Below the pieces are notes generated by a model, which worked only from the letters and a program-made list of their open reading frames with translations, ran no database searches and was not told where the DNA came from. Position numbers and translations under genes: made by a program. 64,000 bases of DNA from Candidatus Micrarchaeota archaeon (GTDB lineage Archaea > Micrarchaeota > Micrarchaeia > Norongarragalinales > UBA8480): positions 11,737 through 75,736 of the forward strand of contig JAKAOM010000003.1 in assembly GCA_021812145.1 (NCBI GenBank), given 5' to 3'. Below are positions 2,453 to 63,500 of this stretch, piece by piece (positions within the stretch are counted from its first letter, which is position 1; every line of letters starts with the position of its first letter).

Positions 2453-3160
2453 TTAGTTCTGATTTTTGTTTTTTATAAGCTCGTCGTCGGCCCTTTTAAG
2501 CGCCTGCATTGAATCGTTGTTTATTTCGGAAACACCGTAGGTTATGCTTGAATTTGTTTTGCTAAGCGTTTTTTCCTTTATTCTCGCTATTATCTTTTCA
2601 GCTTCTACCTGGCTTGTCTCAGGCATTATCACCAGGAACTCGTCTCCTCCGAACCTTCCCATAAAATCGGTTTTTCTCAGGCTTTCTTTTATTTTTTCAG
2701 CCACTTCCCTAAGCTTTTCATCTCCTTTCAAATGCCCGTTCTTGTCGTTGAATTTCTTGAAATCGTCCAAGTCTATCATTACCACTGAACCGCTCTTGGT
2801 TTTTTCAAGTGTTTTTTCTATCCTCCCCCTGCTCAGCGTTTGTGTTAAGTGGTCAGTGCTAGCCTCTTTTTCAAGGCTTTCCATAACTTCGGCTGAATCC
2901 ATCGCCTCCTTGAATTTTAATGCTGCCTTTCTGAATGCTTGAATGTGGTTTTCGTTTAGATCCTCTTTTTGCAGCAGGATTGTTCCGTCTGGGGTGGATA
3001 GCGCTGATTGGGTTATTATTATTGAAGCGTGGGGGCAGGCTGCGAATTTTTTTTCATAGTTGCAGTCCGTGCAGTGTGTTTTGCATTGTATTTCCTTTTT
3101 ATGCTCGCAGTACACTGCAGCTTCGTTTTCGCATTGACTGCATTTCATTTTGTTTTCCAC
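2453..3160 (-). CDS. GGDEF-domain diguanylate cyclase with Cys/His-rich N-terminal zinc-finger-like region
   Basis: Motifs DHLTQTLSRG, IDLDDFKKFND..GHLKGD and GRFGGDEFLVIM are present. RKTD lies 5 residues before GGDEF (RxxD I-site). The N-terminus reads CSQC..CEH..CKTHCTDC..CPH. Confidence 0.8.
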   Translation of the reverse strand: MENKMKCSQCENEAAVYCEHKKEIQCKTHCTDCNYEKKFAACPHASIIITQSALSTPDGTILLQKEDLNENHIQAFRKAALKFKEAMDSAEVMESLEKEASTDHLTQTLSRGRIEKTLEKTKSGSVVMIDLDDFKKFNDKNGHLKGDEKLREVAEKIKESLRKTDFMGRFGGDEFLVIMPETSQVEAEKIIARIKEKTLSKTNSSITYGVSEINNDSMQALKRADDELIKNKNQN

Positions 3161-16458: not shown

Positions 16459-16983
16459 TTACAAAACGGATATCGCTATATACAGCAGCATGACTAGGGT
16501 TAGCGAGACTATTGCGGTAATTGTTTTTCTTGCTTGGTTTTTGTTTCTGCTGGATTCTTCAACCGCCCACCCGAATATCAGAAAATTGTAAAACGGAATT
16601 ATGCTGAATAGAAGACTGCTGAACAGGTAGGTGTGAAGTATTAAAGGAATCAGCCAGAGTGTTATCAGTCCGGCGGGAATTGAAACCAGCGCTAGGCTTA
16701 ACGCCATTGAAATGCTTGAAGCGTTGACTATATTTTCAGCCTTGTTTTCCCCTCCAAGGATTTTTGCCGCTCCAGCGCTTAGCAGTATCATTGCTATTAT
16801 AAGCGCTAGTGTTGTGATGAATTGAGTTAAGGTTTGGCTTACCGATTGGCTTGTGGTGGGAATGCTCAGTATAGCCGCGCTTGCTATAACGGCTATAATA
16901 ACCTTGGTCAGGTTGAAGTTTTTCGACAATCTGTCCAGTTGTTTTTTGTTTAAAAGTACAACTTTCAGGCTTTCTGTTTTCAT
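16459..16983 (-). CDS. Polytopic membrane protein (4-5 TM), last gene of the cyclase operon
   Basis: Hydrophobic segments run throughout. Its start overlaps the upstream cyclase stop by 4 bp. Confidence 0.5.
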   Translation of the reverse strand: MKTESLKVVLLNKKQLDRLSKNFNLTKVIIAVIASAAILSIPTTSQSVSQTLTQFITTLALIIAMILLSAGAAKILGGENKAENIVNASSISMALSLALVSIPAGLITLWLIPLILHTYLFSSLLFSIIPFYNFLIFGWAVEESSRNKNQARKTITAIVSLTLVMLLYIAISVL

Positions 16984-17864
16984 GTTTCAATCACGTGTAT
17001 TTTTACGGGTTTTTCTTTTCCCTTCACCATCTCCTTTTTTTCAATCGCCTTTATTTTCATCTTTAATTTTCTGAACGTTGAATCGGTTATTGCTATCTCC
17101 CCTGCCTTCGCCACCCCCTGCATTCTTGAAGCGGTGTTGACCGCGTCTCCTATTGCCGTGTAGTCCATCACCTTAGAACTTCCGATGTTTCCTATAACCG
17201 CTTCGCCGGTGTTTATTCCAATTCCAACGTTAAGGTTTTTCTTCTTGAACTCTCTCTGCATTTCAATTGCGGTTTGAACCGCGTTGTCCGCGTGGTTTTC
17301 ATTCTTAACCGGAGCGTTGAATATCGCCATGACTGCGTCCCCTATGAACTTGTCCACCATTCCATCGTGCTTCTGTATTATTTTCGTGGCAGTGTTGAAG
17401 TATTCGTTGAGTATTTTAACCACTTTTTCAGGCTCTGTCTTTTCAGACATCGACGTGAATCCCCTAACGTCTGAGAATAAAACTGTTATCTCCTGCCTTT
17501 CCCCTCCGAGCTTTAGCTTTCTCTGCTTCATTATCTTTCTTATAACATTGGGATTGACATATTTTTCGAACATTCCCTTCATCCTGTTCTTTTCCTCCTG
17601 CTCCTTTTTTCTTTTCTCCTCCATTTTGTCGTACGCTATGAACAGAATAAGCGGTATGAAAGTTGCTATCATTGAATATTTTTGAAAAACGTCGTTTAGC
17701 CTTCCCCCGTAGAAAGCGAACCATAGCTGCGTTGAAAATAAGAGAAGGAATGCGAGTATTGCGAGTTGCGTCGAGCTTCTTGTTTTAAGGTAGTTTCCCG
17801 CTGTTTTCATAAGGAAGTAGAGCGAGTAGGTTAGCAAAAAAAGGTAGAGGTATGTTTCTATCAT
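16980..17864 (-). CDS. Membrane-anchored class III adenylate/guanylate cyclase
   Basis: Three N-terminal TM helices followed by VLFSDVRGFT, DKFIGDAVMAIF, GIGINTGEAVIGNIG and YTAIGDAVNTASRMQ. Confidence 0.85.
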   Translation of the reverse strand: MIETYLYLFLLTYSLYFLMKTAGNYLKTRSSTQLAILAFLLLFSTQLWFAFYGGRLNDVFQKYSMIATFIPLILFIAYDKMEEKRKKEQEEKNRMKGMFEKYVNPNVIRKIMKQRKLKLGGERQEITVLFSDVRGFTSMSEKTEPEKVVKILNEYFNTATKIIQKHDGMVDKFIGDAVMAIFNAPVKNENHADNAVQTAIEMQREFKKKNLNVGIGINTGEAVIGNIGSSKVMDYTAIGDAVNTASRMQGVAKAGEIAITDSTFRKLKMKIKAIEKKEMVKGKEKPVKIHVIET

Positions 17865-24156: not shown

Positions 24157-24190
24157 AACGCCGGCGGAGTGGGGTGCCAAGATTAATAAA
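24157..24190 (+). promoter_or_regulatory. Conserved motif copy a (AACGCCGGCGGAGTGGGGTG) plus TATA-like box ATTAATAAA, 24 nt upstream of the tnpB ATG
   Basis: Member of a 6-copy motif family (see findings). It follows a T7 run, and the motif-to-TATA offset is 25 bp. Confidence 0.5.
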
Positions 24191-24213: not shown

Positions 24214-25479
24214 ATGAAGGTTTATAAAACTTTAATTCAGAAGAACGCTCCTTCCAAAAGAGTGGAAGGTTTAATGAATTGTTTTAAAGAAATGGTGAAT
24301 TACAGCGTTAAAATTGCTTTAAACGAGAAGATAACTTCTAGGAATGCTTTGTCGAAAAGAGTTTATAAAAAGTTAAGCGGGAATTTTAAAGTTCCTAGCT
24401 ATTATTACGTGGAGAGCGTGAACAAAGCAATCGGAATAATCAAGAATTATAACAAGGTTTTGAGGAAAAGAGAAAACAAGAAGACTAGAGAAAAAAAAGA
24501 AGGATTTAAAAAAATTTTGTGGAAGGATTTAAGAAAACCTATTGTCAGAAAGCCTTTCCTCTCTTCTTACTTCGGCTTTAAAATCAAAAACAATCAATTA
24601 TTAATTCCTGTTGGCGTGAGGGATTTCGAAACGATTCCTTTGAATGATTATGTTCAATCTAAGCTTGAAGAAGAAGTTGAGGTGAGGAGTTTTACCATAA
24701 CGCCCAACAAGCTTTGTTTAACTATTGGCAAAACATTCAAACCAGTAGAGTGTTTAAACACTTTAGGTGTGGACAGAAACCTAAACAATGTTACAGTTGG
24801 AAATGAGAGTCACCACCTCGCTTTCGACTTGTCTTTAATTCCCAAAATAAAGAAAAGATATAGAAACAAACTGAAACACTTTCACAGAAACGATGTTAGG
24901 ATTAGAAGAAAGCTTTTCAGCAAGTATGGAAAAAGGGCATCCAATAGGGTAAAGCAGGTTTTGCATAAAACTTCGAAAATGATTGTTGAAAACGCTCTTC
25001 AAAGCAGGGAAGCTTTAGTTTTGGAGAATATTAAAGGTTTGAAAGATATTACTTTTAAAGGAGACGGCAAAAGCAAAAAGAAGAGGTTTTCTTTTCACAA
25101 CGCTTTCCCTTACTTTATGCTCGCCCAACAGTTAAAATACAAAGCTGAGTGGGATGGTTTGCAGATAATTCAGTTGTCAAGAAAGGAAACTAGAAACTCA
25201 AGCGTTCAGTGTTCGGTATGTGAGTGTGAAACTCGAATAGTTCCAGAACGGTTGGTTTTCTGCGAGAATTGCGGTTCTTTGTTTGATAGGGATGTGAATG
25301 CTTCGTTTAATATTGCGAAGCGGGGTCGGACAAGGCTGAAACGATCCTTCATTAATGAAAAAGGCTCTTCAGGTGAAGCGATGGTACTGGAACCCAATGA
25401 CCTTACAAAAGTAGGCGAGGCAGTCCAGCCAGTTGATGAGGAGAAGGAGTTTAAATCAAAAACATTAAACTGTTTTTGA
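24214..25479 (+). CDS. tnpB: TnpB-like (IS200/IS605 OrfB, RuvC + zinc ribbon) RNA-guided-nuclease-family protein; no tnpA present
   Basis: LGVDRNLNN (RuvC-I D), ALVLENIKGLK (RuvC-II E), CSVCECE..(11)..CENCG zinc ribbon and FDRDVNASFNIAKRG (RuvC-III D). Confidence 0.85.
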   Translation: MKVYKTLIQKNAPSKRVEGLMNCFKEMVNYSVKIALNEKITSRNALSKRVYKKLSGNFKVPSYYYVESVNKAIGIIKNYNKVLRKRENKKTREKKEGFKKILWKDLRKPIVRKPFLSSYFGFKIKNNQLLIPVGVRDFETIPLNDYVQSKLEEEVEVRSFTITPNKLCLTIGKTFKPVECLNTLGVDRNLNNVTVGNESHHLAFDLSLIPKIKKRYRNKLKHFHRNDVRIRRKLFSKYGKRASNRVKQVLHKTSKMIVENALQSREALVLENIKGLKDITFKGDGKSKKKRFSFHNAFPYFMLAQQLKYKAEWDGLQIIQLSRKETRNSSVQCSVCECETRIVPERLVFCENCGSLFDRDVNASFNIAKRGRTRLKRSFINEKGSSGEAMVLEPNDLTKVGEAVQPVDEEKEFKSKTLNCF

Positions 25480-47244: not shown

Positions 47245-47478
47245 ATGAAAGCAAACCTCAACAAATTTGCGACAAAAATGAAAAGAATAATGAAAACGCG
47301 AGAACAAACACCTATCTTGAAAAAACCACACCTCCACCTACAAACCCACATAACAACAGGACCAAAAGAAAAAGACTTCATCACGCTAAGAGCAGAATTC
47401 AAAAACCTAGAAAACCCCTACCAACACACAGGCCTAAAACCAATCCCAATAAAAAAACCTAAAAAACCAAACATTTAA
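47245..47478 (+). CDS. Small basic hypothetical protein whose 3' end lies in direct repeat A
   Basis: Ends ..FKNLENPYQHTGLKPIPIKKPKKPNI. The peptide KNLENPYQHTGLKP recurs at 48842-48883. Confidence 0.3.
   Translation: MKANLNKFATKMKRIMKTREQTPILKKPHLHLQTHITTGPKEKDFITLRAEFKNLENPYQHTGLKPIPIKKPKKPNI
47401..47442 (+). repeat. 42-bp perfect direct repeat, copy A
   Basis: AAAAACCTAGAAAACCCCTACCAACACACAGGCCTAAAACCA, identical to 48842-48883. Confidence 0.9.
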
Positions 47479-47576: not shown

Positions 47577-48818
47577 GTGGCAGACCAGAGAAAAAAAATA
47601 GAAGAACAATACAAAAGGAACATAATCCAAAGAGAAGTAACCCCAACCATAGATCTGAAAAACCCGACAGCCCTGGCAATACTAGGAGTAAGAAGATGCG
47701 GAAAATCAACTCTATCCACGCAACTATTCAACGGGCAAGACTTCGGATACATAAACTTCGATGATGAAAGACTGCTCGGAGCGACAAAAGACGACCTGAA
47801 CACCATACTCCAAATATTCTACGAACTGTACGGAACAAAACTAGAAAACATAATACTCGACGAAATACAGGAAATCTACGGCTGGGAGCTATTCGTAAGC
47901 AGACTCAGAGACACAAAAAAAGTGATTATAACAGGCTCAAGCTCCAAACTCCTAAGCAGCGAACTATCAACACACCTAACAGGAAGACACCTAGACCTTC
48001 TACTATTCCCCTTCAGCTTCAAAGAACTGCTAAAATACAAGAAAATCGAAACCCGCCCAAACCCAACAACCGAAGAAAAAGCAGAAATAATGAAAACGCT
48101 CGAAGACTACCTAAACAACGGAGGATTCCCTGAAAGACTGACGATAGGAAAACAAATCACAAAAAACATATACGAAGACATCATAACCAAAGACGTCGTC
48201 ATACGCCACAAAATCAAACACGTGAACGACCTAAGGCAAATAGCGCGCTACATGATAGCAAACACGGCAAAAGAATTCACCTACTCCTCACTCAAAAACA
48301 TAACCAGAGTAAAAAACATGATAACCCTAACCAACTGGGTAAAATACATCGAAGAAGCATACCTCGCCTTCACAATAGAAAAATTCTCCTACAAACTCAA
48401 ACAAACAATACTAGCCCCAAAAAAAACATACAGCGTGGATAACGGAATCACAAACGAGATAAACACAGAACTAACCAACAACAAAGGAAGACTCATGGAA
48501 AACACCGTGGCGATAGAATTAATAAAAAAAAGCAAAAACCAAAGAAAATTCAACGTCTACTACTGGAAAAACCAACAGGGAAAAGAAGTAGACTTCATAA
48601 CACAACACGACAAAACACTACAACTAATACAAGTAACCAACGCCTCAAACCAAGAAAAAATACAAAAAAGAGAATACGAATCACTACTAAAAGCCTCAGA
48701 AGAACTACAATGCAACAACCTAACCATAATAACCTGGGACTACGAAAAAAACACGACAGTACAAGGAAAAAAAATAACACACACCCCACTCTGGAAATGG
48801 CTACTACAACAAGAATAA
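47577..48818 (+). CDS. AAA-family ATPase (AAA_14 + DUF4143 type)
   Basis: ILGVRRCGKSTL (Walker A), ILDEIQEIYGWELFVSRL (Walker B), C-terminal GKEVDFI. GTG start in the track. Confidence 0.8.
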   Translation: MADQRKKIEEQYKRNIIQREVTPTIDLKNPTALAILGVRRCGKSTLSTQLFNGQDFGYINFDDERLLGATKDDLNTILQIFYELYGTKLENIILDEIQEIYGWELFVSRLRDTKKVIITGSSSKLLSSELSTHLTGRHLDLLLFPFSFKELLKYKKIETRPNPTTEEKAEIMKTLEDYLNNGGFPERLTIGKQITKNIYEDIITKDVVIRHKIKHVNDLRQIARYMIANTAKEFTYSSLKNITRVKNMITLTNWVKYIEEAYLAFTIEKFSYKLKQTILAPKKTYSVDNGITNEINTELTNNKGRLMENTVAIELIKKSKNQRKFNVYYWKNQQGKEVDFITQHDKTLQLIQVTNASNQEKIQKREYESLLKASEELQCNNLTIITWDYEKNTTVQGKKITHTPLWKWLLQQE

Positions 48819-48841
48819 AAAAACTAAAAAAACCAACCTCC

Positions 48842-48883
48842 AAAAACCTAGAAAACCCCTACCAACACACAGGCCTAAAACCA
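48842..48883 (+). repeat. 42-bp perfect direct repeat, copy B
   Basis: Identical to 47401-47442. Together the two copies bracket the AAA ATPase gene. Confidence 0.9.
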
Positions 48884-48926
48884 CTCAAATAAGAATTACA
48901 CTCCTTCTAAACTTCCCATCTTTTTT

Positions 48927-48960
48927 ACGCCGGCAGTGGGGGGCGCAAAAGCTTTTAAAC
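48927..48960 (+). promoter_or_regulatory. Conserved motif copy b (ACGCCGGCAGTGGGGGGCG) plus TATA-like CTTTTAAAC
   Basis: It follows a T6 run. It lies 89 nt upstream of the ATG at 49049. Confidence 0.45.
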
Positions 48961-49048: not shown

Positions 49049-49576
49049 ATGACCGAAGAAGGCATTGAACAATATATAGAACACTATAGAAAAAAACTGA
49101 GCACAGGCCAAGGCTTAGACCAGCAAAGAAATGACATAAGAAAATTCATGCACAAAATTTACAGAATCCAAAACCACAGCACCATAGAAGGAAAACAAAC
49201 ACTAGGAAAAGCAATAGACGCGCTAAACGAAAGCATACCAACACACCCAGACGCCGGAGGATCAAAAATAAGAAAAGAAACAATGACTGCCATGACAAAA
49301 CTAGCTACAATGAGCGAAACACCCTGGATAGTGCAAAAAACCCTAGACTCGCTCCTACAACACGCAGAAAACCAAAGTCAACTAACAAGACTCCACGCCC
49401 TACAACACGCCGACAACCTACTACAATCAGAACAAAACATGTTCATCCCACTCGAAAAAGACAAAAACAAAGAAAAAATACGAAACAGCGCCCTAAAACT
49501 AAGCAAAGAAACCCACGGATACATCAAAGGACAAGCCATCAAAATAGCAAAAACGAACATCCACTCATTCAATTAA
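49049..49576 (+). CDS. Hypothetical helical protein (175 aa)
   Basis: ATG start and strongly A/C-ending codons. No motif recognised. Confidence 0.5.
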   Translation: MTEEGIEQYIEHYRKKLSTGQGLDQQRNDIRKFMHKIYRIQNHSTIEGKQTLGKAIDALNESIPTHPDAGGSKIRKETMTAMTKLATMSETPWIVQKTLDSLLQHAENQSQLTRLHALQHADNLLQSEQNMFIPLEKDKNKEKIRNSALKLSKETHGYIKGQAIKIAKTNIHSFN

Positions 49577-49580
49577 ACAA

Positions 49581-49603
49581 CCACCCCCTACACTGCCAGC
49601 GTC
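49581..49603 (-). promoter_or_regulatory. Conserved motif copy e, inverted (GACGCTGGCAGTGTAGGGGGTGG on the minus strand)
   Basis: On the minus strand it is preceded by a T6 run. It lies between convergent genes, so it is probably not acting as a promoter here. Confidence 0.4.
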
Positions 49604-49629
49604 AAAAAACAGTACGCCATCAAACATTT

Positions 49630-50196
49630 TCAAGGAAAAACAGGAGTGAAACCCAACTCTCTAGCCTTACCCTCAATAAAATCATTAACAGACAAACCCT
49701 TCATCCTAGCAGCATACTCGGCAAAACCCAAATCATTAACACAAACCACCCTATCCACCAAAGCCTTAATCCCAACATTCCCTATAACTTTTCTTTGAAC
49801 ACAATCATAAGCGATCGACTGAACGTTAAGAGGAACGCCAGACAAAAAACTCTCAATACTAGGCTCCACACCACGCTTCAAAATCGAATAAACGTTATTC
49901 AAAGGAACATAATCCACAACCAAACCCCCACTCACAAGCTTAGGATTACCATACCTATTCTTCTTAACCACCCAACCCTCGGGCAAATCAAAAACATCAA
50001 CAGGCCTCTCAACCAAAAAATCCAAATCAACAACCGGCCTAGCCACCCCATACCAAACACTAGCCAAAGTCCTATAAACAAAACCACCAATCAACCAAAA
50101 ACCACCAACACAATTCCCCTCCACAACACCTAAAACATCCAAAAAAACAGAATCGTCAACACCACTCAAAAAATCACCAGTAACATCCATAAACAA
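49630..50196 (-). CDS. Pol-beta-superfamily nucleotidyltransferase-like protein with extreme Val/Gly-rich composition
   Basis: WLIGGFVYRTL..(12)..VVDLDFLV fits the GG-x-x-R ... DxD NTase pattern. 34 of 188 residues are Val, and the coding strand is very A-poor. Confidence 0.5.
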   Translation of the reverse strand: MFMDVTGDFLSGVDDSVFLDVLGVVEGNCVGGFWLIGGFVYRTLASVWYGVARPVVDLDFLVERPVDVFDLPEGWVVKKNRYGNPKLVSGGLVVDYVPLNNVYSILKRGVEPSIESFLSGVPLNVQSIAYDCVQRKVIGNVGIKALVDRVVCVNDLGFAEYAARMKGLSVNDFIEGKARELGFTPVFP

Positions 50197-50352: not shown

Positions 50353-50414
50353 TGCGGGATAGTGCGGGATTCTGCGGGATACTCTAAACACTTTTGCGGG
50401 ATACTCTGCGGGAT
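50353..50414 (+). repeat. Iteron-like array: TGCGGGAT x5
   Basis: Copies start at 50353, 50363, 50373, 50395 and 50407. The first three are spaced exactly 10 bp apart, and copies 3 and 4 share CTGCGGGATACTCT / TTGCGGGATACTCT. Confidence 0.85.
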
Positions 50415-50418
50415 TCTC

Positions 50419-53065: not shown

Positions 53066-53302
53066 TTGTTAGATTATGTTATGGTTGTAAATAATATGGA
53101 GTTACCACAAGTTAATATTATTGTAACTATTGTTTTAATTATTATCGTTGCCGGCATTACATATTTTGTGCAGCAAAACAGTTATGTGTCAAATATTTCA
53201 GCATTACAATTACAACAGAATAATTATATATTAAATATTTCAAATTTACAATCACAACTTAGTCAAACACAAAATCAACTACAAGCTTCAGTCAATAAAT
53301 GA
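53066..53302 (+). CDS. Small signal-anchored N/Q-rich protein
   Basis: TM helix VNIIVTIVLIIIVAGITYFV followed by Q/N/L repeats. It lies in a very AT-rich segment. Confidence 0.4.
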   Translation: MLDYVMVVNNMELPQVNIIVTIVLIIIVAGITYFVQQNSYVSNISALQLQQNNYILNISNLQSQLSQTQNQLQASVNK

Positions 53303-56604: not shown

Positions 56605-56787
56605 ATGACAAACCTATATTTTAAAGGAGTTGGAATCGGGCTTGTAATAGCTTGGGTTACAACCTTCCTAGCTTACTGGCTGCAAAGCAAGGGAATAAAG
56701 CACACAAAAATTCCCATACCAACCGCGCTCATACTGTTAGAGATAGTGTTAAGCGTGATATTCCTCGCAGTATCATTTTTAACATAA
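56605..56787 (+). CDS. Small 2-TM membrane protein upstream of arsR-family gene
   Basis: 60 aa with two hydrophobic helices. It ends 12 nt before the arsR-like start. Confidence 0.4.
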   Translation: MTNLYFKGVGIGLVIAWVTTFLAYWLQSKGIKHTKIPIPTALILLEIVLSVIFLAVSFLT

Positions 56788-56798
56788 CGTGATAATCA

Positions 56799-57107
56799 AT
56801 GGGAACAGTGTGGAAGGCTTTAGCAGACGACAGCCGCAGACAAGTTTTGCTCATGCTCATAGAAGGCGAGATGACCCCCAGCGAAATGGCAGCCAAGTTT
56901 AACTTCACCATGCCGGCCCTATCCACCCACCTAAAAATTCTAAGAGACGCTGGACTAATAGTAGAACGCAGGGAGGGAAAGAGAAGGCTCTACTCGCTAA
57001 ACGCCAACGGCATGAACGAACTATTCGAATTCGTGGACTCGTTCTGGGCCTACCCGCTGCACAACCTAAAAAACTACTTCAAAGGCAGAGCGAAACACAA
57101 GGAATGA
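56799..57107 (+). CDS. ArsR/SmtB-family winged-helix regulator
   Basis: ALADDSRRQVLLML..GEMTPSEMAAKFNFTMPALSTHLKILRDAGLIVERREGKRRLYSL. Confidence 0.85.
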   Translation: MGTVWKALADDSRRQVLLMLIEGEMTPSEMAAKFNFTMPALSTHLKILRDAGLIVERREGKRRLYSLNANGMNELFEFVDSFWAYPLHNLKNYFKGRAKHKE

Positions 57108-57240
57108 TTTTTCTCTAAAGGCAGCGAATTACAAGAAAAACCACAAAAAATATGGAATTTCAAGAAAAAACCATACGAATGAATGAAGTTTTAAAAAAAA
57201 ATAATTACAAAAAAATGATTTAACGCCGGCAGTGAGGGGT
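57051..57240 (+). repeat. Repeat R1 (~190 bp): last 57 nt of the arsR-like gene plus downstream region ending in motif copy c
   Basis: Near-identical to 61145-61338 apart from a few substitutions and A-run length changes. The left part also matches 59290-59391. Confidence 0.85.
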
Positions 57241-57256
57241 TGAAAGATTTATAAAC
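57222..57256 (+). promoter_or_regulatory. Conserved motif copy c (AACGCCGGCAGTGAGGGGT) plus TATA-like ATTTATAAAC
   Basis: The motif-to-TATA offset is 25 bp. It lies 82 nt upstream of the ATG at 57338. Confidence 0.5.
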
Positions 57257-57337
57257 ACTGAAAAGTAGATTTATAATAACGAAGAGAGGCCCTCATCTCT
57301 TTTTGCATGCCTCTGCCCTTGAAAAAGGTGAACATGT

Positions 57338-57652
57338 ATGAATACATACGCTGAAATTAAAATAAAAAGCAGGATATCCGAAAACCTGGCCACGCGAGAG
57401 TCAGCCGACAGCTTCTTTAACACGATAGAAAAACTACGCGCAGAAAAAATAATCGTCAACTTCTCAGGTGTGACGTTCATGTCAAGATCTTTCGCCCACC
57501 AGTACCTAACAAGAGAGAAAGAATCAAACAAACAGATAACAAACACTCACGAGCCAAAAGAAGTTAAAAAAATGCTTGAATTGGTAAAAGAATCAAAAAA
57601 CGCTCCTGCCATACACTTCAACACAGGCAGGATAGCCGCCCTGCATTTGTAA
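57338..57652 (+). CDS. STAS-like DUF4325-type protein
   Basis: LATRESADSFFNTIEKL...KIIVNFSGVTFMSRSFAHQYL matches the DUF4325 pattern (tR..a......v.lDF.gV..is.SFadE). Confidence 0.5.
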   Translation: MNTYAEIKIKSRISENLATRESADSFFNTIEKLRAEKIIVNFSGVTFMSRSFAHQYLTREKESNKQITNTHEPKEVKKMLELVKESKNAPAIHFNTGRIAALHL

Positions 57653-57812
57653 AAATCTTCCATGAAATCTAAACCACAAACTAAAACAGGAAAAGTTTCA
57701 AAAAACTACCTCAAAAAGCTTGAGAGGATACGCAAGGGAAAGTTCACAAGAGTGAAAAGCTTCGCAAAACAATACAAAAACCAGCATTAAACGATAAATT
57801 AATTTTTTATTT

Positions 57813-57986
57813 TTACCAGTACGCCTTGTTGGCCCAGATGAAAAAACCTATCAATACAATCAAAACTAAAAATAACACCATCACCGCGCTCAACCCTATA
57901 TACCACCAAATCGCTGGAAAAGCGACGACTATTGCTATTGCAGTGAGGATGAATTGAGCTTTTTTGCCAGGATCATCATTTAACAT
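57813..57986 (-). CDS. Unlisted 57-aa 2-TM protein
   Basis: MLNDDPGKKAQFILTAIAIVVAFPAIWWYIGLSAVMVLFLVLIVLIGFFIWANKAYW. It falls below the track cutoff. Confidence 0.3.
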   Translation of the reverse strand: MLNDDPGKKAQFILTAIAIVVAFPAIWWYIGLSAVMVLFLVLIVLIGFFIWANKAYW

Positions 57987-58141
57987 TTTTCAACAAACAA
58001 ATTATGGTTGAATATATTAAAAATGTTTTTACACCGCTTAACAAATATACACAAGTAAGAAACACTCTAAGCTTTGGATTTAATAGCAAAAATATAATAA
58101 ACACAAACAACATAACTATTATTTGTAAGGTGATGCTATTC

Positions 58142-58375
58142 ATGAAGAGATATTTTAGAGTGATCATAGAAAAGGATGAGGACGGGGTTTACATTGCAAC
58201 AGTGCCTGAACTGCCTGGATGCGTTTCTGACGGCAAAACAAGAAGGGAAGCGCTTACAAACGTCAAGGAAGCAATATCAGGCTATCTGGAAACACTAAAA
58301 GACATGAATTGGACTATGCCTAAAATTGTAGGGGTGGACAGGGTGCTGGTGAACGTAAATGCCGCACCTGCCTAA
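58142..58375 (+). CDS. hicB: HicB-family antitoxin
   Basis: YFRVIIEKDEDGVYIATVPELPGCVSDGKTRREALTNVKEAISGYLE. Confidence 0.8.
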   Translation: MKRYFRVIIEKDEDGVYIATVPELPGCVSDGKTRREALTNVKEAISGYLETLKDMNWTMPKIVGVDRVLVNVNAAPA

Positions 58376-58580
58376 CGTTTCCGCCTCTAAAGTCATAAAA
58401 GCCCTTTGCAAGATAGGCTATGTTTTCAACAGGCAGAAAGGAAGCCACATAATACTAGTAAACCCAGAAAGACACAAAATAGCCGTAATTCCAAACCGCA
58501 AGGAAATACCCACAGGAACGCTAAGAGCAATAATAAACGAAGCAGGCCTCACGGTTGAAGAATTCCTAAAACTATTATAA
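58359..58580 (+). CDS. hicA: HicA-family mRNA-interferase toxin
   Basis: SASKVIKALCKIGYVFNRQKGSHIILVNP...IPNRKEIPTGTLRAIINEAGLTVEEF. It overlaps hicB by 17 nt. Confidence 0.85.
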   Translation: MPHLPNVSASKVIKALCKIGYVFNRQKGSHIILVNPERHKIAVIPNRKEIPTGTLRAIINEAGLTVEEFLKLL

Positions 58581-58587
58581 AAATAAT

Positions 58588-58642
58588 TTACACAAGTAAG
58601 AAAAACTCGGTTCTTATAAAAAAAGAGGCTTTGTGTAAGTAA
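58588..58642 (+). repeat. 55-nt imperfect-palindrome element X1 downstream of hicA
   Basis: TTACACAAG ... CTTTGTGTAA form 9 bp with one bulged T. About 70% identical and colinear to 62088-62142. Confidence 0.6.
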
Positions 58643-58678
58643 TTCAGAAAATCGGTGATTACTTGCACAGAAAAGCGA

Positions 58679-59206
58679 TTATTTAAGCAGGTTTTTCATT
58701 ACTTCTGGCATGGATTGTTTCACCTGTTTTTTGACCTGCAATTTAGTGAACAGGTCTTTGAGTTCTTGCTCGTTATCTGCTTCTATTTCAAGTGATGGGC
58801 GATATTTTTCTATATCCTCAATGAACACGCGGTTTTTTCCTAACTGGTACTGCCACCCTTGCCGTGAAAATTCAAACCCAAAATCAAAATCTTTGCCTAA
58901 CTCTTTTTCAATAAAATTCAGCGCTTCTTTTTCAGTATCAAATTCTTTCCTTAAGGCGACTTTGTCTATTTTGCCTATCTTTTGAAACTCGGTCTTTTTT
59001 CTAACCAGGATAACGTTTTTTGTGTTCCAGTTGTTTTTGGAAAGAACTCGCACTCTTAAGAAGTCGTCCGTTAGATTGTATGTTTCTTTCCTGGGAACAA
59101 AAATTATGTCTTTAAAGGCATAATTGCTTTTGAAAACGCCGCCAAGACCCTCAACTTTTTGCCGAGCAATTTCAACACTTTCTATTATCCCCCTGCCTTC
59201 AATCAT
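58679..59206 (-). CDS. CYTH-like (class IV adenylate cyclase / triphosphatase fold) protein
   Basis: DDFLRVRV, then RQGWQYQLGKNRVFIEDIEKYRPSLEIEA, resembles CyaB/CYTH (alRiR ... K.R..y....v.lD.v.glG.f.EiE). Confidence 0.45.
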   Translation of the reverse strand: MIEGRGIIESVEIARQKVEGLGGVFKSNYAFKDIIFVPRKETYNLTDDFLRVRVLSKNNWNTKNVILVRKKTEFQKIGKIDKVALRKEFDTEKEALNFIEKELGKDFDFGFEFSRQGWQYQLGKNRVFIEDIEKYRPSLEIEADNEQELKDLFTKLQVKKQVKQSMPEVMKNLLK

Positions 59207-59289
59207 ACAAATATTTTGGGTAAGGAAGTTTAATTAAAGTTTAGAACTGTACACTTTTCCCTCATGGCTCCCCCCTTGCATCACTCCGG

Positions 59290-59391
59290 AACGGCATGAA
59301 CGAACTATTCGAATTCATAGACGCGTTCTGGGCTTACCCCCTGCACAACCTAAAAAACTACTTCAAAGGCAGAGTGAAACACGAAGACTAA
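59290..59391 (+). pseudogene. Orphan copy of the arsR-like gene 3' end (repeat R2)
   Basis: Encodes NGMNELFEFIDAFWAYPLHNLKNYFKGRVKHED*, against NGMNELFEFVDSFWAYPLHNLKNYFKGRAKHKE* in 56799..57107. No upstream HTH part is present. Confidence 0.8.
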
Positions 59392-59485
59392 AAAATAGCA
59401 AAACTAAAAAAACCTGAACGGAAAACCTTAAATACAACCTTAATCTTAAAATAAGAAAGTAAGAATTATAGAAAAGGTGATTCAA

Positions 59486-59761
59486 ATGAACGTGGAGATG
59501 ATAAGAATGTCTTCAAAAGGCCAGATAGTGATACCTCAAGACATAAGGCAGTATGTCAGCGCGGGAGAAGGAACGGCTTTCGCCGTCATAGGAAGCAAGG
59601 ACACCATAGTGCTTAAAAAGATAGAAATGCCTTCCAAAGAATCTCTAATAAAAGAACTCAAAACAATGGCTGAAGAAGGAAGCAGAAGAATGAAAAAACT
59701 AGGCATAAAAGAAGAAAACGTCAACTCAATCATACACAAAAGAAGGTTAAAACAGCAATGA
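59486..59761 (+). CDS. AbrB/SpoVT-family antitoxin
   Basis: IRMSSKGQIVIPQDIRQYV. AGGTGA lies 8 nt upstream of the ATG at 59486. Confidence 0.8.
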   Translation: MNVEMIRMSSKGQIVIPQDIRQYVSAGEGTAFAVIGSKDTIVLKKIEMPSKESLIKELKTMAEEGSRRMKKLGIKEENVNSIIHKRRLKQQ

Positions 59762-60159
59762 AAGTAGTTTTCGACACCAACGTGCTTATATCATCAACAA
59801 TATTTGACAAAAGCGAAGCTCAGAAACTATTATTCAAGCTTATTCAACTTGAAATTCCAATCTTCTCATCAACGCAGATATTAGAAGAATATCAAAACGT
59901 GCTGAAAAGAGACTTCAAATACTCTGACGAAGAAACTGCAAACATCACAAAAAAGATGCTGTCCTTTCTGACACTTGTAGAATCAAATCAGAAAATCAAC
60001 CTCATAGAAGAAGACCCAGATGACAACAAAATCATTGAATGCGCTGTGGCGTCAAACTCCGATTTTATCGCCACCTACGACCCGCACCTGATCAAAATCA
60101 AGAAATATTGCGAAATAAGAATAATAACGCCCACAGATATGAGAAGATTGCTAAAATAG
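59758..60159 (+). CDS. PIN-domain toxin
   Basis: MKVVFDTNVLISS.., later EDPDDNKIIECA and FIATYD. 4-bp overlap with the antitoxin gene. Confidence 0.85.
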   Translation: MKVVFDTNVLISSTIFDKSEAQKLLFKLIQLEIPIFSSTQILEEYQNVLKRDFKYSDEETANITKKMLSFLTLVESNQKINLIEEDPDDNKIIECAVASNSDFIATYDPHLIKIKKYCEIRIITPTDMRRLLK

Positions 60160-60193
60160 AAACGCACTCGCGTAGTAAATAAGCGCAAACTTT

Positions 60194-60224
60194 ACAAAAA
60201 CATGGAATTTCAAGCAAAACCATG
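60194..60224 (+). repeat. Short copy (R2') of the central hairpin of repeat R
   Basis: ACAAAAACATGGAATTTCAAGCAAAACCATG, against ACAAAAAATATGGAATTTCAAGAAAAAACCATA in R1. Confidence 0.6.
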
Positions 60225-60300
60225 CTAAATAATTGTTGCTTTTTGGGTTTTAATGCATAATTTTTTAATCCAGTTCGATTCTAATATTTGATGATTTGTT

Positions 60301-60639
60301 ATGGTTGAAGTTAGGAATAAGAGAAGTGGTGTTGATGAGGCTGCGTATTTGAACGCTGCTCATTTGAAGCTTGCCGGCGCTGATCATAAGGTTATAGCTA
60401 ATTATTTGAACGCGAGGCATGGCCATGAGAGTATTGCCCTGGCGTTGCACAAGGTTGGTTTTGGCGAGGAAAAGATAATTTCGGCGTTGAACCAGAAAGA
60501 GCTTGGCCTGACCAACGCTGACAAAGCGAGAAGCTTAAGCATGCTCGTTGATAATTACAAGGACTTGCGTTTTAAAAAGATAGGAAAGGAGATAGAAAAA
60601 CTTAAAACCAAGCGGGTTTCAGGTTTAAAGCAAAGGTGA
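60301..60639 (+). CDS. Orphan protein, paralog 1 of a tandem pair
   Basis: YLNAAHLKLAGADHKVIANYLNARHGHESIALALHKVGFGEEKIISALNQKELGLTN aligns with the next ORF. Confidence 0.5.
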   Translation: MVEVRNKRSGVDEAAYLNAAHLKLAGADHKVIANYLNARHGHESIALALHKVGFGEEKIISALNQKELGLTNADKARSLSMLVDNYKDLRFKKIGKEIEKLKTKRVSGLKQR

Positions 60640-60645
60640 TTGTTT

Positions 60646-61089
60646 ATGGCGAGAGGCGGGATAGATGAATCGTTTTTTAGAGGTTTTGGTAAGCGTAATG
60701 TTGATCCTTTGGAACACTCACCGCGCGGCTCTGGCACCAAAGCTGAGAAAGCTTTTCACTCGCCGGAGGACGAGCATGACTTGAAGAAAATGGAGCTTAA
60801 AAAAATAAACTCGACACTAGACGCGTCCCATCTTAAAGCTGTCGGAGCTAATCACAAAATGATAGCCGCTTTTTTGAACATGAAGTACGGCCACGAGTAC
60901 ATTCCCTGGGCGTTGTACAAAGCAGGTTTCAGCGAAAGAAAAATCATCTCGGCAATAAACCAAAGAAAACTAGGGCTAAGCAACACAGAAAAAATGAGAA
61001 GCCTACACAAACTACGCACCGACTGGTACCTACCACTAGAAAAAATAGACAAAGAAATAAGAAAACTAGGACGACAAAACCAACCATAA
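60646..61089 (+). CDS. Orphan protein, paralog 2 of a tandem pair
   Basis: LDASHLKAVGANHKMIAAFLNMKYGHEYIPWALYKAGFSERKIISAINQRKLGLSN. It has an extra ~45-aa N-terminus. Confidence 0.5.
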   Translation: MARGGIDESFFRGFGKRNVDPLEHSPRGSGTKAEKAFHSPEDEHDLKKMELKKINSTLDASHLKAVGANHKMIAAFLNMKYGHEYIPWALYKAGFSERKIISAINQRKLGLSNTEKMRSLHKLRTDWYLPLEKIDKEIRKLGRQNQP

Positions 61090-61144
61090 AAAAAAGATTT
61101 TAGTTCATACTAAAAAAACACTCGTTTTTGAGAAAAAAGAGAAT

Positions 61145-61338
61145 TACCCGCCACACAACCTAAAAAACTACTTCAAAGGCAGAGTGAAACACAAAGAATG
61201 ATTTTTATCTAAAGGCAGCGAATTCCAATAAAAAACCACCAAAAATATGGAATTTCAAGAAAAAATCATACGAATGAATTAAGTTTTAAAAAAAAAATAA
61301 TTACAAAAAAAATGCTTTAACGCCGGCAGTGTGGGGTG
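61145..61338 (+). repeat. Repeat R3 (~194 bp): 18-codon arsR-like 3' remnant plus downstream region ending in motif copy d
   Basis: YPPHNLKNYFKGRVKHKE* followed by sequence colinear with 57108-57240. Confidence 0.85.
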
Positions 61339-61354
61339 CTAGGATTTAAATATT
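61319..61354 (+). promoter_or_regulatory. Conserved motif copy d (AACGCCGGCAGTGTGGGGTG) plus TATA-like ATTTAAATATT
   Basis: The offset is 25 bp. The box lies ~24-30 nt upstream of the ATG at 61376. Confidence 0.5.
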
Positions 61355-61375
61355 GTTTAATATATCTAAATTCAG

Positions 61376-61720
61376 ATGATAAAAGATATGAGTGTGACTG
61401 AACAAGCCTCAAAAGATATATTTATATACTTTAATGATATAAGTATAACTATGAAACAACAGCAAATTCAAATAATGCACTCGCCCACTCTAAACACGGT
61501 TTTGATGGTTGAAAAAACGCTTCAAGACTCAAAACAGGTAATAAAAGTGTCAGAACTGAAAAGAAGGCTTCCAAGACAGGTGATGCACAACACCCTTCTT
61601 CAAATACTAGACTATCTTCAGGAAAGCGGAAAAATACTCGTAACAACCAAAGGGGTTGTCTGGACCTACACCCCTCAAAACGTTATGGAAAAACTAAAGA
61701 GAGGGGGGCTAGAACTTTGA
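61376..61720 (+). CDS. Winged-helix-like small protein, candidate antitoxin/regulator
   Basis: VIKVSELKRRLPRQVMHNTLLQILDYLQESGKILVTTKGVVW. It overlaps the next gene by 4 bp, and the start is uncertain (internal ATGs exist). Confidence 0.45.
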   Translation: MIKDMSVTEQASKDIFIYFNDISITMKQQQIQIMHSPTLNTVLMVEKTLQDSKQVIKVSELKRRLPRQVMHNTLLQILDYLQESGKILVTTKGVVWTYTPQNVMEKLKRGGLEL

Positions 61721-62073
61721 AAACAATCAAGGTCATTCTTAAAAGCCAGGCAAGGAAAGAATATGAAACACTATCCAAACTTGTGCAGGAGCAGAGAAAA
61801 GAAGGCAAAACAAACTCAGAAGAAATCCAGCTCCTGAAATCAATAGACAAAAAAGTGGAAATACTAAAATACAACCCGGCGTACGGGAAAAACATACCTA
61901 AAAAGCTAATTCCAAACACGCTTGACGTCGACAACCTATTCAGACTAGAGCTAACCAACTACTGGAGGATGCTCTACACCATAAGAACAAACGAGGTTGA
62001 AATAATAAGCTTCGTATTATACATAATCGATCACCCAACATACGACAAAATGTTCGGATACAAAAAACGCTAA
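61717..62073 (+). CDS. RelE/ParE-superfamily toxin-like protein
   Basis: The C-terminal FRLELTNYWRMLYTIRTNEVEIISFVLYIIDHPTYDKMF resembles the RelE/YoeB core (yR.iY.i..n.v.i....i..H..Y). Confidence 0.5.
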   Translation: MKTIKVILKSQARKEYETLSKLVQEQRKEGKTNSEEIQLLKSIDKKVEILKYNPAYGKNIPKKLIPNTLDVDNLFRLELTNYWRMLYTIRTNEVEIISFVLYIIDHPTYDKMFGYKKR

Positions 62074-62087
62074 AAACCTAAAACAGT

Positions 62088-62142
62088 TTATACAAGTAAA
62101 CAACTAGCTTTTGAGAAAAAAACGGCTTTGTGCATAAAGTAA
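62088..62142 (+). repeat. 55-nt imperfect-palindrome element X2 downstream of the RelE-like gene
   Basis: TTATACAAGTAAACAACTAGCTTTTGAGAAAAAAACGGCTTTGTGCATAAAGTAA. Colinear with X1 (58588-58642). Confidence 0.6.
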
Positions 62143-62176
62143 AACTTTGTACACAACTTTAAGACTTTGTACACAA
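62125..62176 (+). repeat. Three direct repeats (G/A)CTTTGT(G/A)CA(T/C)AA at ~20-bp spacing next to the transposase 3' end
   Basis: GCTTTGTGCATAA (62125), ACTTTGTACACAA (62144) and ACTTTGTACACAA (62164). Confidence 0.7.
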
Positions 62177-62185
62177 GAATTTTTT

Positions 62186-63376
62186 TTATTGGTTTAGGGG
62201 TATTCCTAGCTCGTTGATTTCGTGGATTAGGACTACTATGTTGTGGCATAGGGCTTTTAGTAGGGCTTCGTTTTTTTGAGCGGTTTCGTCTTTGCTTCTT
62301 ATTAGATCTGTGAATTTGCTTTTGATCATGCTGAATGTGGCTTCCACATTGCTTCTTAAGTGGTAGTGTTTCAGGAATTCTTCTCTGTTGAAAGTGAAGT
62401 AGTTGAACATTTTTCTCCATATGAAGCCTCTTCCAGTAGTTTTTATTGACACGTTGGTTTTGAACGGTATGTATGCTGTGCCTCCTATACTATCAATGAA
62501 AGAGTAATTGTCTGAGGCGTGGTAGCCTTTGTCTGCTGATACTTCCTGTATGTTGAATCCGTTGTTCAGGGTTTTTTGTGTTAAAGGTATGAAATAAGGG
62601 TTATCTGGGCTCGCTCCTCTTCCAACGTCCACAGCGGTTATTATGTTGGTTTTGACTCCCACGCACACATGCATTTTAACCCACTCATGTTCTTGGTCGG
62701 TTTCATGCTTTTCCTTGCAGTACTCGCTAAAACGGGTTGTTCTGAAACCGCTTGAGTCTATGGCGAAGCTGGTTTCCACGCTTTTTAAAGGCAGGGATGA
62801 AAGGGTTATTAGCTGTTGTATTACAGGGGTTAGGCTTTCTTTTCTCATGTACTTGCTTACGGCGCTGAAACTCCATGCTTTTTTCACGTAATTCTTATCT
62901 TTTGCATCCCTTAGATCGCTCATGAACCTTCTTAACGAGAACATTGTGTACACTTTGAGTGTTGAGGCGAAAACCGCGTCTCTTGTTGAAACTTTAGGCC
63001 TGCCTAATGCTTGCTCTGGCTCTTCTATACTATTGCATAAGTCTGAAAGCAGTTTAAGGAAAACCTCTTTTTCCTGCGTTTGGCTTTGGTTGTAGGCGCT
63101 CCAGTTTTGCGGGTATGTAGGTCTTTTGAATTCAAAAACTTCGTTTTTCCCATAGGCTTTGAGTATTATCGTTCTAACAGCGTGAATGTGCTTGCATATA
63201 TTGCCGTTTGTTTCAAAGTCCTGGCACGTGCAGGTGAACCTGTCGTCTTTCTGCCTTACTATGTAGTTTCTGCCTGGATTGCTTTTGCTTGGAACGTTCC
63301 ACTCTCCATCATGCCTTCTCTGTATGTGAGCATGCCTTGCAAGCCACCTTCCTCTTTCCTCTCTCCTATCCACCAA
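62186..63376 (-). CDS. DDE transposase (IS4/IS5-like) with N-terminal SWIM zinc finger
   Basis: CTCQDFETNGNICKHIHAV (SWIM CxCxnCxH), AIDSSGF, VSADKGYHASDNYSFI, VEATFSMIKSKF. Its codon bias is opposite to neighbouring minus-strand genes. Confidence 0.8.
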   Translation of the reverse strand: MVDRREERGRWLARHAHIQRRHDGEWNVPSKSNPGRNYIVRQKDDRFTCTCQDFETNGNICKHIHAVRTIILKAYGKNEVFEFKRPTYPQNWSAYNQSQTQEKEVFLKLLSDLCNSIEEPEQALGRPKVSTRDAVFASTLKVYTMFSLRRFMSDLRDAKDKNYVKKAWSFSAVSKYMRKESLTPVIQQLITLSSLPLKSVETSFAIDSSGFRTTRFSEYCKEKHETDQEHEWVKMHVCVGVKTNIITAVDVGRGASPDNPYFIPLTQKTLNNGFNIQEVSADKGYHASDNYSFIDSIGGTAYIPFKTNVSIKTTGRGFIWRKMFNYFTFNREEFLKHYHLRSNVEATFSMIKSKFTDLIRSKDETAQKNEALLKALCHNIVVLIHEINELGIPLNQ

Positions 63377-63412: not shown

Positions 63413-63500
63413 TTCTACTTAGAATAAGGAAGGTCAAATATATAAGTCTTTCTACTTAGAATAAATTAGGAGAAGATTTAAATATCTTTCTACTTAGAAT
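63413..63500 (+). repeat. Three copies of the palindromic 13-mer TTCTACTTAGAAT at 37/38-bp spacing
   Basis: Copies at 63413, 63450 and 63488; each contains TTCTA-CT-TAGAA. They lie between the transposase start and the small + strand ORF. Confidence 0.85.

Follow-up and report, generated by a model that had tools for sequence, protein, structure and literature searches.

We analysed a 64-kb stretch of DNA (hereafter, the window) from a metagenome-assembled genome (MAG) of Micrarchaeota (DPANN); the source contig is 335,887 bp long. The first 40 kb of the window have an ordinary housekeeping content, e.g., DNA polymerase D, two FtsZ, and a tRNA-Val, and a mosaic of accessory genes begins at approximately 47 kb and continues to the window end. 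Our subject is an arsR-family regulator gene within this mosaic and the array of small gene cassettes behind it. The arsR gene (56799–57107, + strand) is intact, encodes 102 amino acids (aa; Pfam HTH_5, E=1.9e-12), and is the putative recombination target of the array. It follows the gene of a 60-aa membrane protein (56605–56787, +), a conserved partner of arsR: an open reading frame (ORF) of 60, 61, or 67 aa precedes arsR in all relatives. The order of the array is arsR, unit 1, orphan B, unit 2, orphan C, a winged helix-turn-helix (wHTH)/YoeB-like gene pair, and an insertion sequence (IS); the units measure 0.8–2.3 kb, and the orphans are copies of the arsR 3' end. Our analysis tentatively suggests that the array arose by successive additive recombination at this 3' end.

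The 3' end of arsR and the stretch downstream of it recur behind the gene, as the sequence-only reading of this DNA had stated, and alignments bear this out. Copy A (57006–57240, +), our reference, consists of the last 34 arsR codons and 135 bp of downstream DNA (A2). Copy B (59290–59391, +) is an orphan arsR 3' end of 34 codons in frame with its own TAA stop, and it matches copy A over 97 nt (59290–59386/91) at 92.8% identity (BLAST E=3.5e-35). Copy C (61145–61337, +), likewise an orphan, matches over 193 nt at 92.2% identity (E=1e-74); it comprises the last 18 arsR codons with their own TGA stop (61145–61201) and the 135-bp downstream stretch (61202–61337, 91.9% identity), including a 21-nt box described below. 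Copy D (60196–60223, +) is a fragment of the downstream stretch, with a match of 29 nt at 89.7% identity that is significant yet marginal (E ~1e-4; an 18-mer with one mismatch matches too). The core 28-mer occurs exactly three times in the window, compared with 0.00 expected occurrences in 100 shuffles. Only copy A is attached to a complete arsR gene, and the copies separate unrelated cargo. The “central hairpin” ascribed earlier to the downstream stretch did not hold up: its RNA folds no better than shuffled sequences (z=+0.27 and +0.46) and has no Rfam match, and a structured RNA at this position was rejected.

The orphan ends read like parts of genes. Copy B translates in frame to NGMNELFEFIDAFWAYPLHNLKNYFKGRVKHED and copy C to YPPHNLKNYFKGRVKHKE, each followed by a stop codon at the position where the live arsR stops. 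Copy B carries five amino-acid changes, all conservative, and several of them match states found in orthologs (FVDAFW; GRVK..ED); its stop codon has changed from TGA to TAA and is still a stop. ArsR orthologs across records labelled Micrarchaeota or Micrarchaeaceae are 76–88% identical. Since the frame, the stop, and the conservative nature of the changes were kept, the ends appear to have diverged within working arsR genes and to have been displaced afterward. Judged from their sequences, the orphan ends thus resemble ends of other, functional arsR alleles that were displaced, and not copies that decayed in place.

Decay in place is the core of one alternative, namely that the arsR region was duplicated in situ, or that full paralogs once stood here, and that these were eroded to 3' fragments. 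The repeats are indeed direct, local, and approximately 8% diverged, and they lie in a mosaic region with an IS and other insertions. However, what lies between one pair of repeats is unrelated to what lies between the next, which a simple tandem duplication would not give; neither the 5' part of arsR nor a remnant of its 60-aa partner is found near copies B and C; and tandem arsR genes occur in no relative. Together with the intact frame and stop of copy B and its conservative, partly ortholog-like changes, these observations make in-situ duplication improbable.

The cassettes between the repeats are rich in toxin–antitoxin (TA) genes. Unit 1 contains a gene with a weak match to DUF4325/STAS-like proteins (57338–57652, +; Pfam E=7.4e-5; at 22.8 bits, slightly short of the cut-off of 23), a hicB–hicA TA pair (58145–58580, +; HicB_lk_antitox, E=1.1e-12; HicA_toxin, E=5.4e-19), and, as its last gene, a CYTH-like gene with a weak match (58679–59206, −; Pfam CYTH E=0.0035, below the cut-off). 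Unit 2 holds an AbrB/MazE-like and PIN TA pair (59477–60159, +; PIN_3, E=2.1e-18) and two paralogous genes of unknown function (60301–61089, +; 55% identity over 85 aa, E=1e-29), which have no match in Pfam or PADLOC. The AbrB–PIN pair is 32–36% identical to the MazE–PIN pair at the Micrarchaeota locus L009, and the label AbrB for the PIN partner is taken solely from this MazE/AbrB-like relative. A 28-nt stretch just upstream of the AbrB–PIN pair (59444–59469) is 93% identical to the stretch upstream of the MazE–PIN pair of L009 (7632–7659). Since the proteins themselves are only 32–36% identical, this stretch may be a conserved operator.

The last pair of the array consists of an 89-aa antitoxin-like gene, whose true start is at 61451, and a YoeB/RelE-like toxin gene (61451–62073, +), with their own promoter at approximately 61415. 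Homologs of the toxin carry PF06769 or PF05016 domains. The pair is 80% identical to that of P0122 at locus L014 (5735–6004), and the 89-aa partner is conserved; DNA homology to L014 is confined to 61411–62064. P0122 is the closest homolog of the toxin of the window, and the identical toxin with its partner was found in three different contexts. The array is closed by an IS with a DDE transposase and a SWIM zinc finger (62186–63376, −; DDE_Tnp_1, E=1.5e-19; SWIM, E=7.8e-5). Three copies of CTTTGTRCAYAA lie on one side of this transposase gene and a 38-nt tandem repeat (2.3 copies) on the other (62125–62176 and 63413–63500); terminal inverted repeats were not found at this IS, and its ends are therefore undefined. 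Signatures of type II TA systems were found for HicB/HicA and PIN_3 in Pfam and for the homologs of the YoeB/RelE-like toxin. TATA-like boxes precede every unit, and the CYTH-like gene and a 57-aa ORF face the opposite strand. Thus, most cassette labels proposed earlier stand (hicBA, PIN, the two paralogs, the RelE/YoeB-like pair, and the IS), while DUF4325 and CYTH are weak matches and AbrB is assigned via the relative.

Independent assemblies back the array on its left side. L012, which was assembled from SRR13206618 (Logan) and contains the CYTH-like gene, is 100% identical to positions 57061–59370 of the window. Both of its ends fall inside a 30-mer common to the repeat copies, as is expected of a true repeat in an assembly at k=31; its start and end share a 26-mer, and flanking repeats and a circle fit this equally well. 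L001, which comes from another sample and is 98.5% identical, reaches from arsR across the downstream stretch into the first part of the DUF4325 gene. Thus, the first two junctions are confirmed. The junctions from copy B to the AbrB gene and from the element R2c (see below) to copy C are present in the assembly of the window alone, and they are without independent support because exact-protein look-ups with the PIN protein and paralog 2 returned no other record.

The earlier concern that the repeats are assembly artefacts was therefore settled for the left junctions, and it applies to the two junctions known from one assembly. In its general form, this alternative holds that strain variants sharing the arsR 3' end were mis-joined. 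The source is a MAG, and contigs of related samples break near the repeats. However, the copies differ by approximately 8%, and the longest run common to all three is 31 nt, with pairwise runs a few nt longer, far below the final k-mers of the k141 contigs. In L012, independently, the flank of the CYTH-like gene is followed by a piece of arsR without its 5' part, and copy C is still homologous, though imperfectly (7 of 10 nt), on the left side of the identical run, which is not the pattern of a k-mer mis-join. Furthermore, re-pairing the three left and three right flanks still leaves two orphans. We consider an artefact very unlikely.

The array was not found in relatives. When cassette content was compared with other Micrarchaeota, as the sequence-only reading had proposed, eight arsR loci (76–88% ArsR identity) kept the pair of membrane-protein gene and arsR and had different downstream genes. 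None of these eight loci contained repeated arsR 3' ends; these relatives are too distant to serve as empty sites. Since the relatives lack the repeats and carry other genes downstream, the array is lineage-specific.

Similar units were found at tRNA genes of the relatives. At L016 (5122–6446), a 1.2-kb unit with one ORF and the TA pair of P0122 lies between an intron-containing tRNA-Ala gene and an exact 15-nt copy of its 3' end. At L014 (3948–6446), two units stand in tandem behind another tRNA-Ala gene: one copy of its 3' end follows a single FAD-oxidoreductase gene, and a second copy follows the TA unit with P0122. At L009 (6802–7873), and likewise at L010, an exact 15-mer copy of the tRNA-Arg 3' end lies 988 bp downstream, approximately 3 kb from the arsR of that genome, and the unit encloses only the MazE/AbrB–PIN pair that is homologous to the pair of the window. 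Brackets of this kind, with tRNA ends of 12–15 nt and units of 1.0–1.2 kb, were seen at three of seven distinct tRNAs in the fetched loci, while approximately 0.002 recurrences per gene are expected by chance. The two downstream tRNA-end copies of L014 form an 18-nt repeat between them and differ at one base (A or C), and each variant matches a different tRNA-Ala gene, which is as expected after crossover within an attachment (att) core.

Two bracketed units of the window complete this picture. Upstream of the arsR locus, a 46-nt direct repeat encloses a single AAA_14/DUF4143 ATPase gene (47577–48818, +; Pfam E=2.4e-33 and 5.8e-25) and its promoter; the PADLOC match of this gene is PDC-S01, a candidate defence family (E=1.7e-99). 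Of the two repeat copies, the left one (47400–47445, +) belongs to the 3' end of a 77-aa ORF (47245–47478), and the right copy (48841–48886, +) is 98% identical and reads KNLENPYQHTGLKPLK up to its own stop codon. Within unit 1, the hicBA pair is bracketed by R2a (58048–58062, +) and R2b (58589–58603, +), an exact 15-nt repeat (24 nt at 92%); the background chance of a shared run of at least 12 nt is 0.008. In 1–40 kb of the window, comparable bracketing repeats were not found, and all repeats in that part are paralogous genes. We also considered AACCTAAAAAAC as a joint recombination signal of the arsR and AAA_14 repeats and rejected it, as it has 8 matches compared with approximately 2 expected, of which about 5 are independent, on an A-rich strand.

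The hicBA brackets belong to R2, a second and weak repeat family at cassette 3' ends (TTTAYACAAGTAA...GGCTTTGTG), with copies at approximately 58046 and 58587, at 61102, and at approximately 62087. R2c (61102–61138, +) abuts copy C and is 81.6% identical over 38 nt (E=0.004) to R2d (62085–62121, +), the fourth copy, which stands at the end of the last unit. R2 was rejected as a family of attC-like palindromes, since one copy folds modestly (z=−2.3) and the others do not fold or fold differently. R2 is more likely to represent cassette 3' flanks with T-runs.

We favour, tentatively and at somewhat less than even confidence, the explanation that the array was formed by successive additive recombination at the 3' end of arsR, catalysed by a trans-acting site-specific recombinase, with decayed or cis-mobilizable mini-elements as its units. 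Incoming DNA would bring its own arsR 3' end, possibly as a circular intermediate. Recombination inside the shared stretch would join the incoming 3' end to the resident gene, so that arsR stays intact, the cargo is inserted, and the earlier 3' end is pushed downstream as an orphan. Repeats of this event would have built the array of unit 1 (DUF4325, hicBA, and CYTH), copy B, unit 2 (the AbrB–PIN pair, then copy D and the two paralogs), copy C, and the wHTH/YoeB-like pair, and the IS would have landed at the far end afterward. The putative catalyst is a tyrosine-type site-specific recombinase whose gene would lie in another part of the genome or be supplied by a helper element, and the units would have kept little beyond addictive TA genes. 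A site-specific recombinase is favoured because the short brackets at the tRNA ends and at hicBA look like att cores and because the L014 variants fit a crossover. The view that copies of a target-gene 3' end are scars of successive integrations, put forward by the sequence-only reading, is supported in outline by the displaced ends, the AAA_14 locus, the three tRNA genes of relatives, and the lack of an array at the arsR genes of relatives. The three contexts of the identical toxin P0122 also count in favour of the explanation.

Several observations weigh against this explanation. Neither an integrase nor Cas1 nor another recombinase was found among the ORFs of at least 150 aa in the window by Pfam and PHROGs searches, and the loci of the relatives contained no integrase or other recombinase either. 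No virus or plasmid carrying attP was found when the arsR core and the AAA_14 repeat, as well as the ArsR, toxin, and AAA_14 proteins, were compared with IMG/VR and the whole array with PLSDB and INPHARED. No close strain with an alternative arrangement or an empty site was found; the 98.5%-identical L001 has the same first junction. The repeats are uneven in extent: they measure about 97–98, 193, and 29 nt, and codons 70 and 85 mark their left edges. Copies A and C remain homologous for 135 bp beyond the stop codon, as similar there (92%) as in the coding part, which a site-specific mechanism need not produce. A 31-nt run that is identical in A, B, and C and is flanked by variable positions speaks for the explanation (P=0.008 if the 8 variable sites fell at random). 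However, DNA-level conservation across orthologs is also among the highest at these codons, so selection may explain the run, and dyad symmetry was not found in it (97% of shuffles score as well). Therefore, we do not take the run as proof of an att core. The integrase search was negative also in the tRNA-linked units and their 10–20-kb surroundings. Two unannotated genes of approximately 335 aa beside the L014 array were considered as hidden integrases and rejected, as they show no similarity in Pfam or the PDB.

Some of these observations fit better with a different route to the same stacking, namely host homologous recombination with DNA that was taken up from lineages approximately 8% diverged and carried an arsR 3' segment together with the downstream genes of the respective lineage. 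The event would be a Campbell-type single crossover of a circularised fragment, or one-sided homology combined with an illegitimate join, and the repeat length would equal the homology of the fragment. The repeats of 46, 98, and 193 nt are long enough for this route, and their edges look arbitrary, lying at codon 70, at codon 85, at the stop codon, and just past the 21-nt box. Between A and C, identity is the same in coding and non-coding DNA (~92%), as in orthologous haplotypes. Each orphan is followed by DNA that could plausibly be native there, copy C by the same 135-bp stretch as the live gene, and copy B by the AbrB–PIN pair and then by remnant D. No recombinase was found in the 64 kb, the core has no dyad symmetry, and an archaeal integrase can itself give outcomes that resemble homologous recombination, with segments of ~104 bp (PMC8371274). 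Thus, homologous recombination accounts better for repeats that are long and arbitrarily bounded, for a divergence of A and C that is the same inside and outside the coding part, for the stretch that follows C, and for the missing recombinase. However, it is inefficient between 92%-identical segments of 50–190 nt, it needs a circularisation or an illegitimate join every time, and it leaves unexplained the 15-nt hicBA bracket and the 12–15-nt tRNA-end brackets, which are too short for it and resemble att cores. We regard this route as the main alternative, somewhat less likely than a site-specific recombinase.

The short brackets are also relevant to transposition. Those of L009, L016, and hicBA have a length of 15 nt, which is right for a casposon target duplication. 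Since the L014 variants differ, att crossover fits better than target duplication, and a casposon was rejected because of the missing Cas1 match and the missing terminal inverted repeats. A transposon or miniature inverted-repeat transposable element was rejected as well: inverted repeats are missing at the unit ends, and only hicBA has a short direct bracket.

The sequence-only reading had also compared the array with chromosomal integrons, while noting that it saw no integrase and no canonical attC. The latter observation agrees with our Pfam and PHROGs searches, which found no IntI or PF00589-type protein in the window, with Rfam, which gave no match at E≤1 in the window, and with a pattern scan for RYYYAAC...GTTRRRY pairs with paired L sites on both strands of the window, which gave 0 candidates (HattCI/IntegronFinder not run). 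An array of the integron type, or of the type of clusters of attC sites lacking integron integrases (CALINs), formed by an integron integrase, would account for small TA-rich cassettes, which are found in integrons including archaeal ones (PMC9668308). However, the window contains no R''/L''–L'/R' architecture and no tyrosine recombinase, each cassette comes with a TATA-type promoter of its own, orientation is mixed among the cassettes, and the repeats derive from the 3' end of a host gene and are not imperfect palindromes. Chromosomal integrons and CALINs are likewise enriched in TA and defence genes; they differ in having IntI, attI, structured attC sites, and mostly promoterless, co-oriented cassettes (PMC9668308), none of which was found here. 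The integron likeness therefore falls away, and an integron origin is extremely improbable.

Our analysis further revealed that the GCCGGCAGTG motif, noted earlier at the end of the repeated stretch, is part of a separate, promoter-proximal 21-nt box, TTTNACGCYGGCAGTGNRGGG, with five copies in the window. All five lie 6–9 nt upstream of a TATA-like box. One copy is part of A (TTTAACGCCGGCAGTGAGGGG; 57219–57239, +), and a second is part of C (61316–61336, +). Copy E (48923–48943, +) lies upstream of ORF175 (49049–49576), and copy F (49585–49606, −) lies on the far side of ORF175 in inverted orientation with respect to E; this pair is similar to terminal inverted repeats and is unique. Copy G (24157–24180, +) is degenerate and lies upstream of a TnpB-like gene (24214–25479). 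Since the box is also present at ORF175 and at the TnpB-like gene, it is not a by-product of arsR duplication. The description of the array as promoter-bearing repeats separating cassettes is thus correct for A and C, which carry the box, and incorrect for B and D, which do not.

A longer promoter or leader module shared past the box was rejected, as it was not significant (P=0.07–0.9) and the similarity is confined to the 21 nt. Scanning IMG/VR with TTTNACGCCGGCAGTGNGGGG gave no match, and the single matches in GTDB representatives and in JGI metagenomes (L002 and L013) were attributed to chance, as they lie in GC-rich bacterial coding DNA. The box is lineage-restricted. It may serve several accessory genes as a common operator, or it may be a promoter element that has spread or the relic of a recombination site.

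Several known systems resemble the arsR array. In bacteria, cis-mobilizable elements (CIMEs) without an integrase accrete in tandem with integrative and conjugative elements (ICEs) or integrative and mobilizable elements (IMEs), e.g., in Streptococcus with ICESt1-type elements, for which the 3' end of a protein gene is the target (PMC5704250). As in the arsR array, the target gene stays intact, the unit is bounded by a repeat of the 3' end, units without an integrase lie between att sites, and the site is re-used. In contrast, the CIME/ICE cases are bacterial, their units measure several to tens of kb, and an integrase-bearing relative is normally present in the array or the genome, whereas the arsR array has units of 0.8–2.3 kb, no visible integrase, repeats of 98–193 nt that are 8% diverged, and a DPANN host. 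The ssrA genomic islands of Dehalococcoides are tandem islands at the 3' end of one gene (PMC3146451). They share with the arsR array the tandem position downstream of a conserved gene, the direct repeats of its 3' end, the location in a variable part of a small genome, and islands that lack an integration module. Their repeats are uniformly 20 bp, and most of the islands carry a serine-recombinase module overlapping attL, whereas the arsR array has repeats of variable length and no recombinase module found in the 64-kb window.

Archaeal precedents have also been described. Archaeal elements integrate in 3'-distal parts of protein genes, including a gene of the AsnC family of regulators, provide a new stop codon, and form arrays (PMC6563490), and lengths between 13 and 243 bp are known for archaeal att sites (PMC8371274). 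These thaumarchaeal elements are similar to the arsR case in their winged-helix target of the AsnC family, in the replacement of the 3' end and stop, in forming arrays when a site is used again, and in their range of att lengths. They differ in that they measure 5–100 kb, are recognised by their integrases, and have mostly short and exact repeats. In Sulfolobus, remnants of tRNA-linked elements are found, some of which carry vapBC (PMC3718332). These degenerate insertions beside tRNA genes, in which TA pairs survive, resemble the 1-kb units of L009, L014, and L016. In the Sulfolobus remnants, fragments of the int gene overlap the tRNA, while no int fragment was seen in the Micrarchaeota units. 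With these bacterial and archaeal precedents, the earlier suggestion of an undescribed cassette-accretion system was overstated. The footprint of repeated integration is itself well known; what is unusual here is the tiny size of the units, the lack of a recombinase nearby, and the long, diverged repeats.

We also observed features elsewhere in the window. Between 42000 and 51000, the + strand is extremely rich in A and C (AT skew as high as +0.51, GC skew as low as −0.36), independent of ORF orientation, and minus-strand ORFs in this region, such as 49630–50196, may be stop-poor shadow ORFs or genes of odd composition. Short tandem repeats of TGCGGGATAC (about 3 copies, followed by 2 of a 12-nt variant) lie at 50353–50418, upstream of a 618-aa gene at 50481. 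The segment 53000–54000 has a GC content of 0.26, compared with a window mean of ~0.40, contains a few small ORFs and a 42-nt near-tandem repeat (53180–53257), and is probably foreign DNA. Toward the start of the window, we identified a GGDEF-domain protein (2453–3160, −; E=7.9e-28) and a protein with a class III nucleotidyl cyclase domain (16980–17864, −; E=1.1e-31). GGDEF proteins are uncommon in archaea.

This study also bears on gene gain in DPANN archaea, which have tiny genomes, are host-dependent and mostly uncultured, and in which the acquisition of accessory genes is poorly documented. The arsR locus and the tRNA-linked units suggest that their TA and defence genes move about in packets of minimal size, for which the 3' ends of conserved genes are the places of recombination. 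If the units are the last remnants of ordinary elements, the array would be a routine, tidy case of TA genes outliving their vehicles. If a recombinase acting in trans or homology-driven insertion is responsible, the array would provide a testable model of gene flow in these lineages, and orphan gene ends would serve as a marker of variable islands in MAGs. A broader possibility, which we consider unlikely at present but for which the recurring 1-kb units at tRNA genes of relatives leave some room, is cassette capture throughout the Micrarchaeota, in which promoter-bearing units of 0.5–2 kb with TA, defence, or single metabolic genes and no recombinase of their own would be stacked at the 3' ends of tRNA genes and small conserved genes, each bounded by a copy of the 3' end of its target, by one recombinase acting in trans or by host recombination. 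Such a system would be a functional counterpart of integron and CIME arrays that operates without attC or a resident integrase, and it could rank among the chief ways in which these reduced genomes acquire genes.

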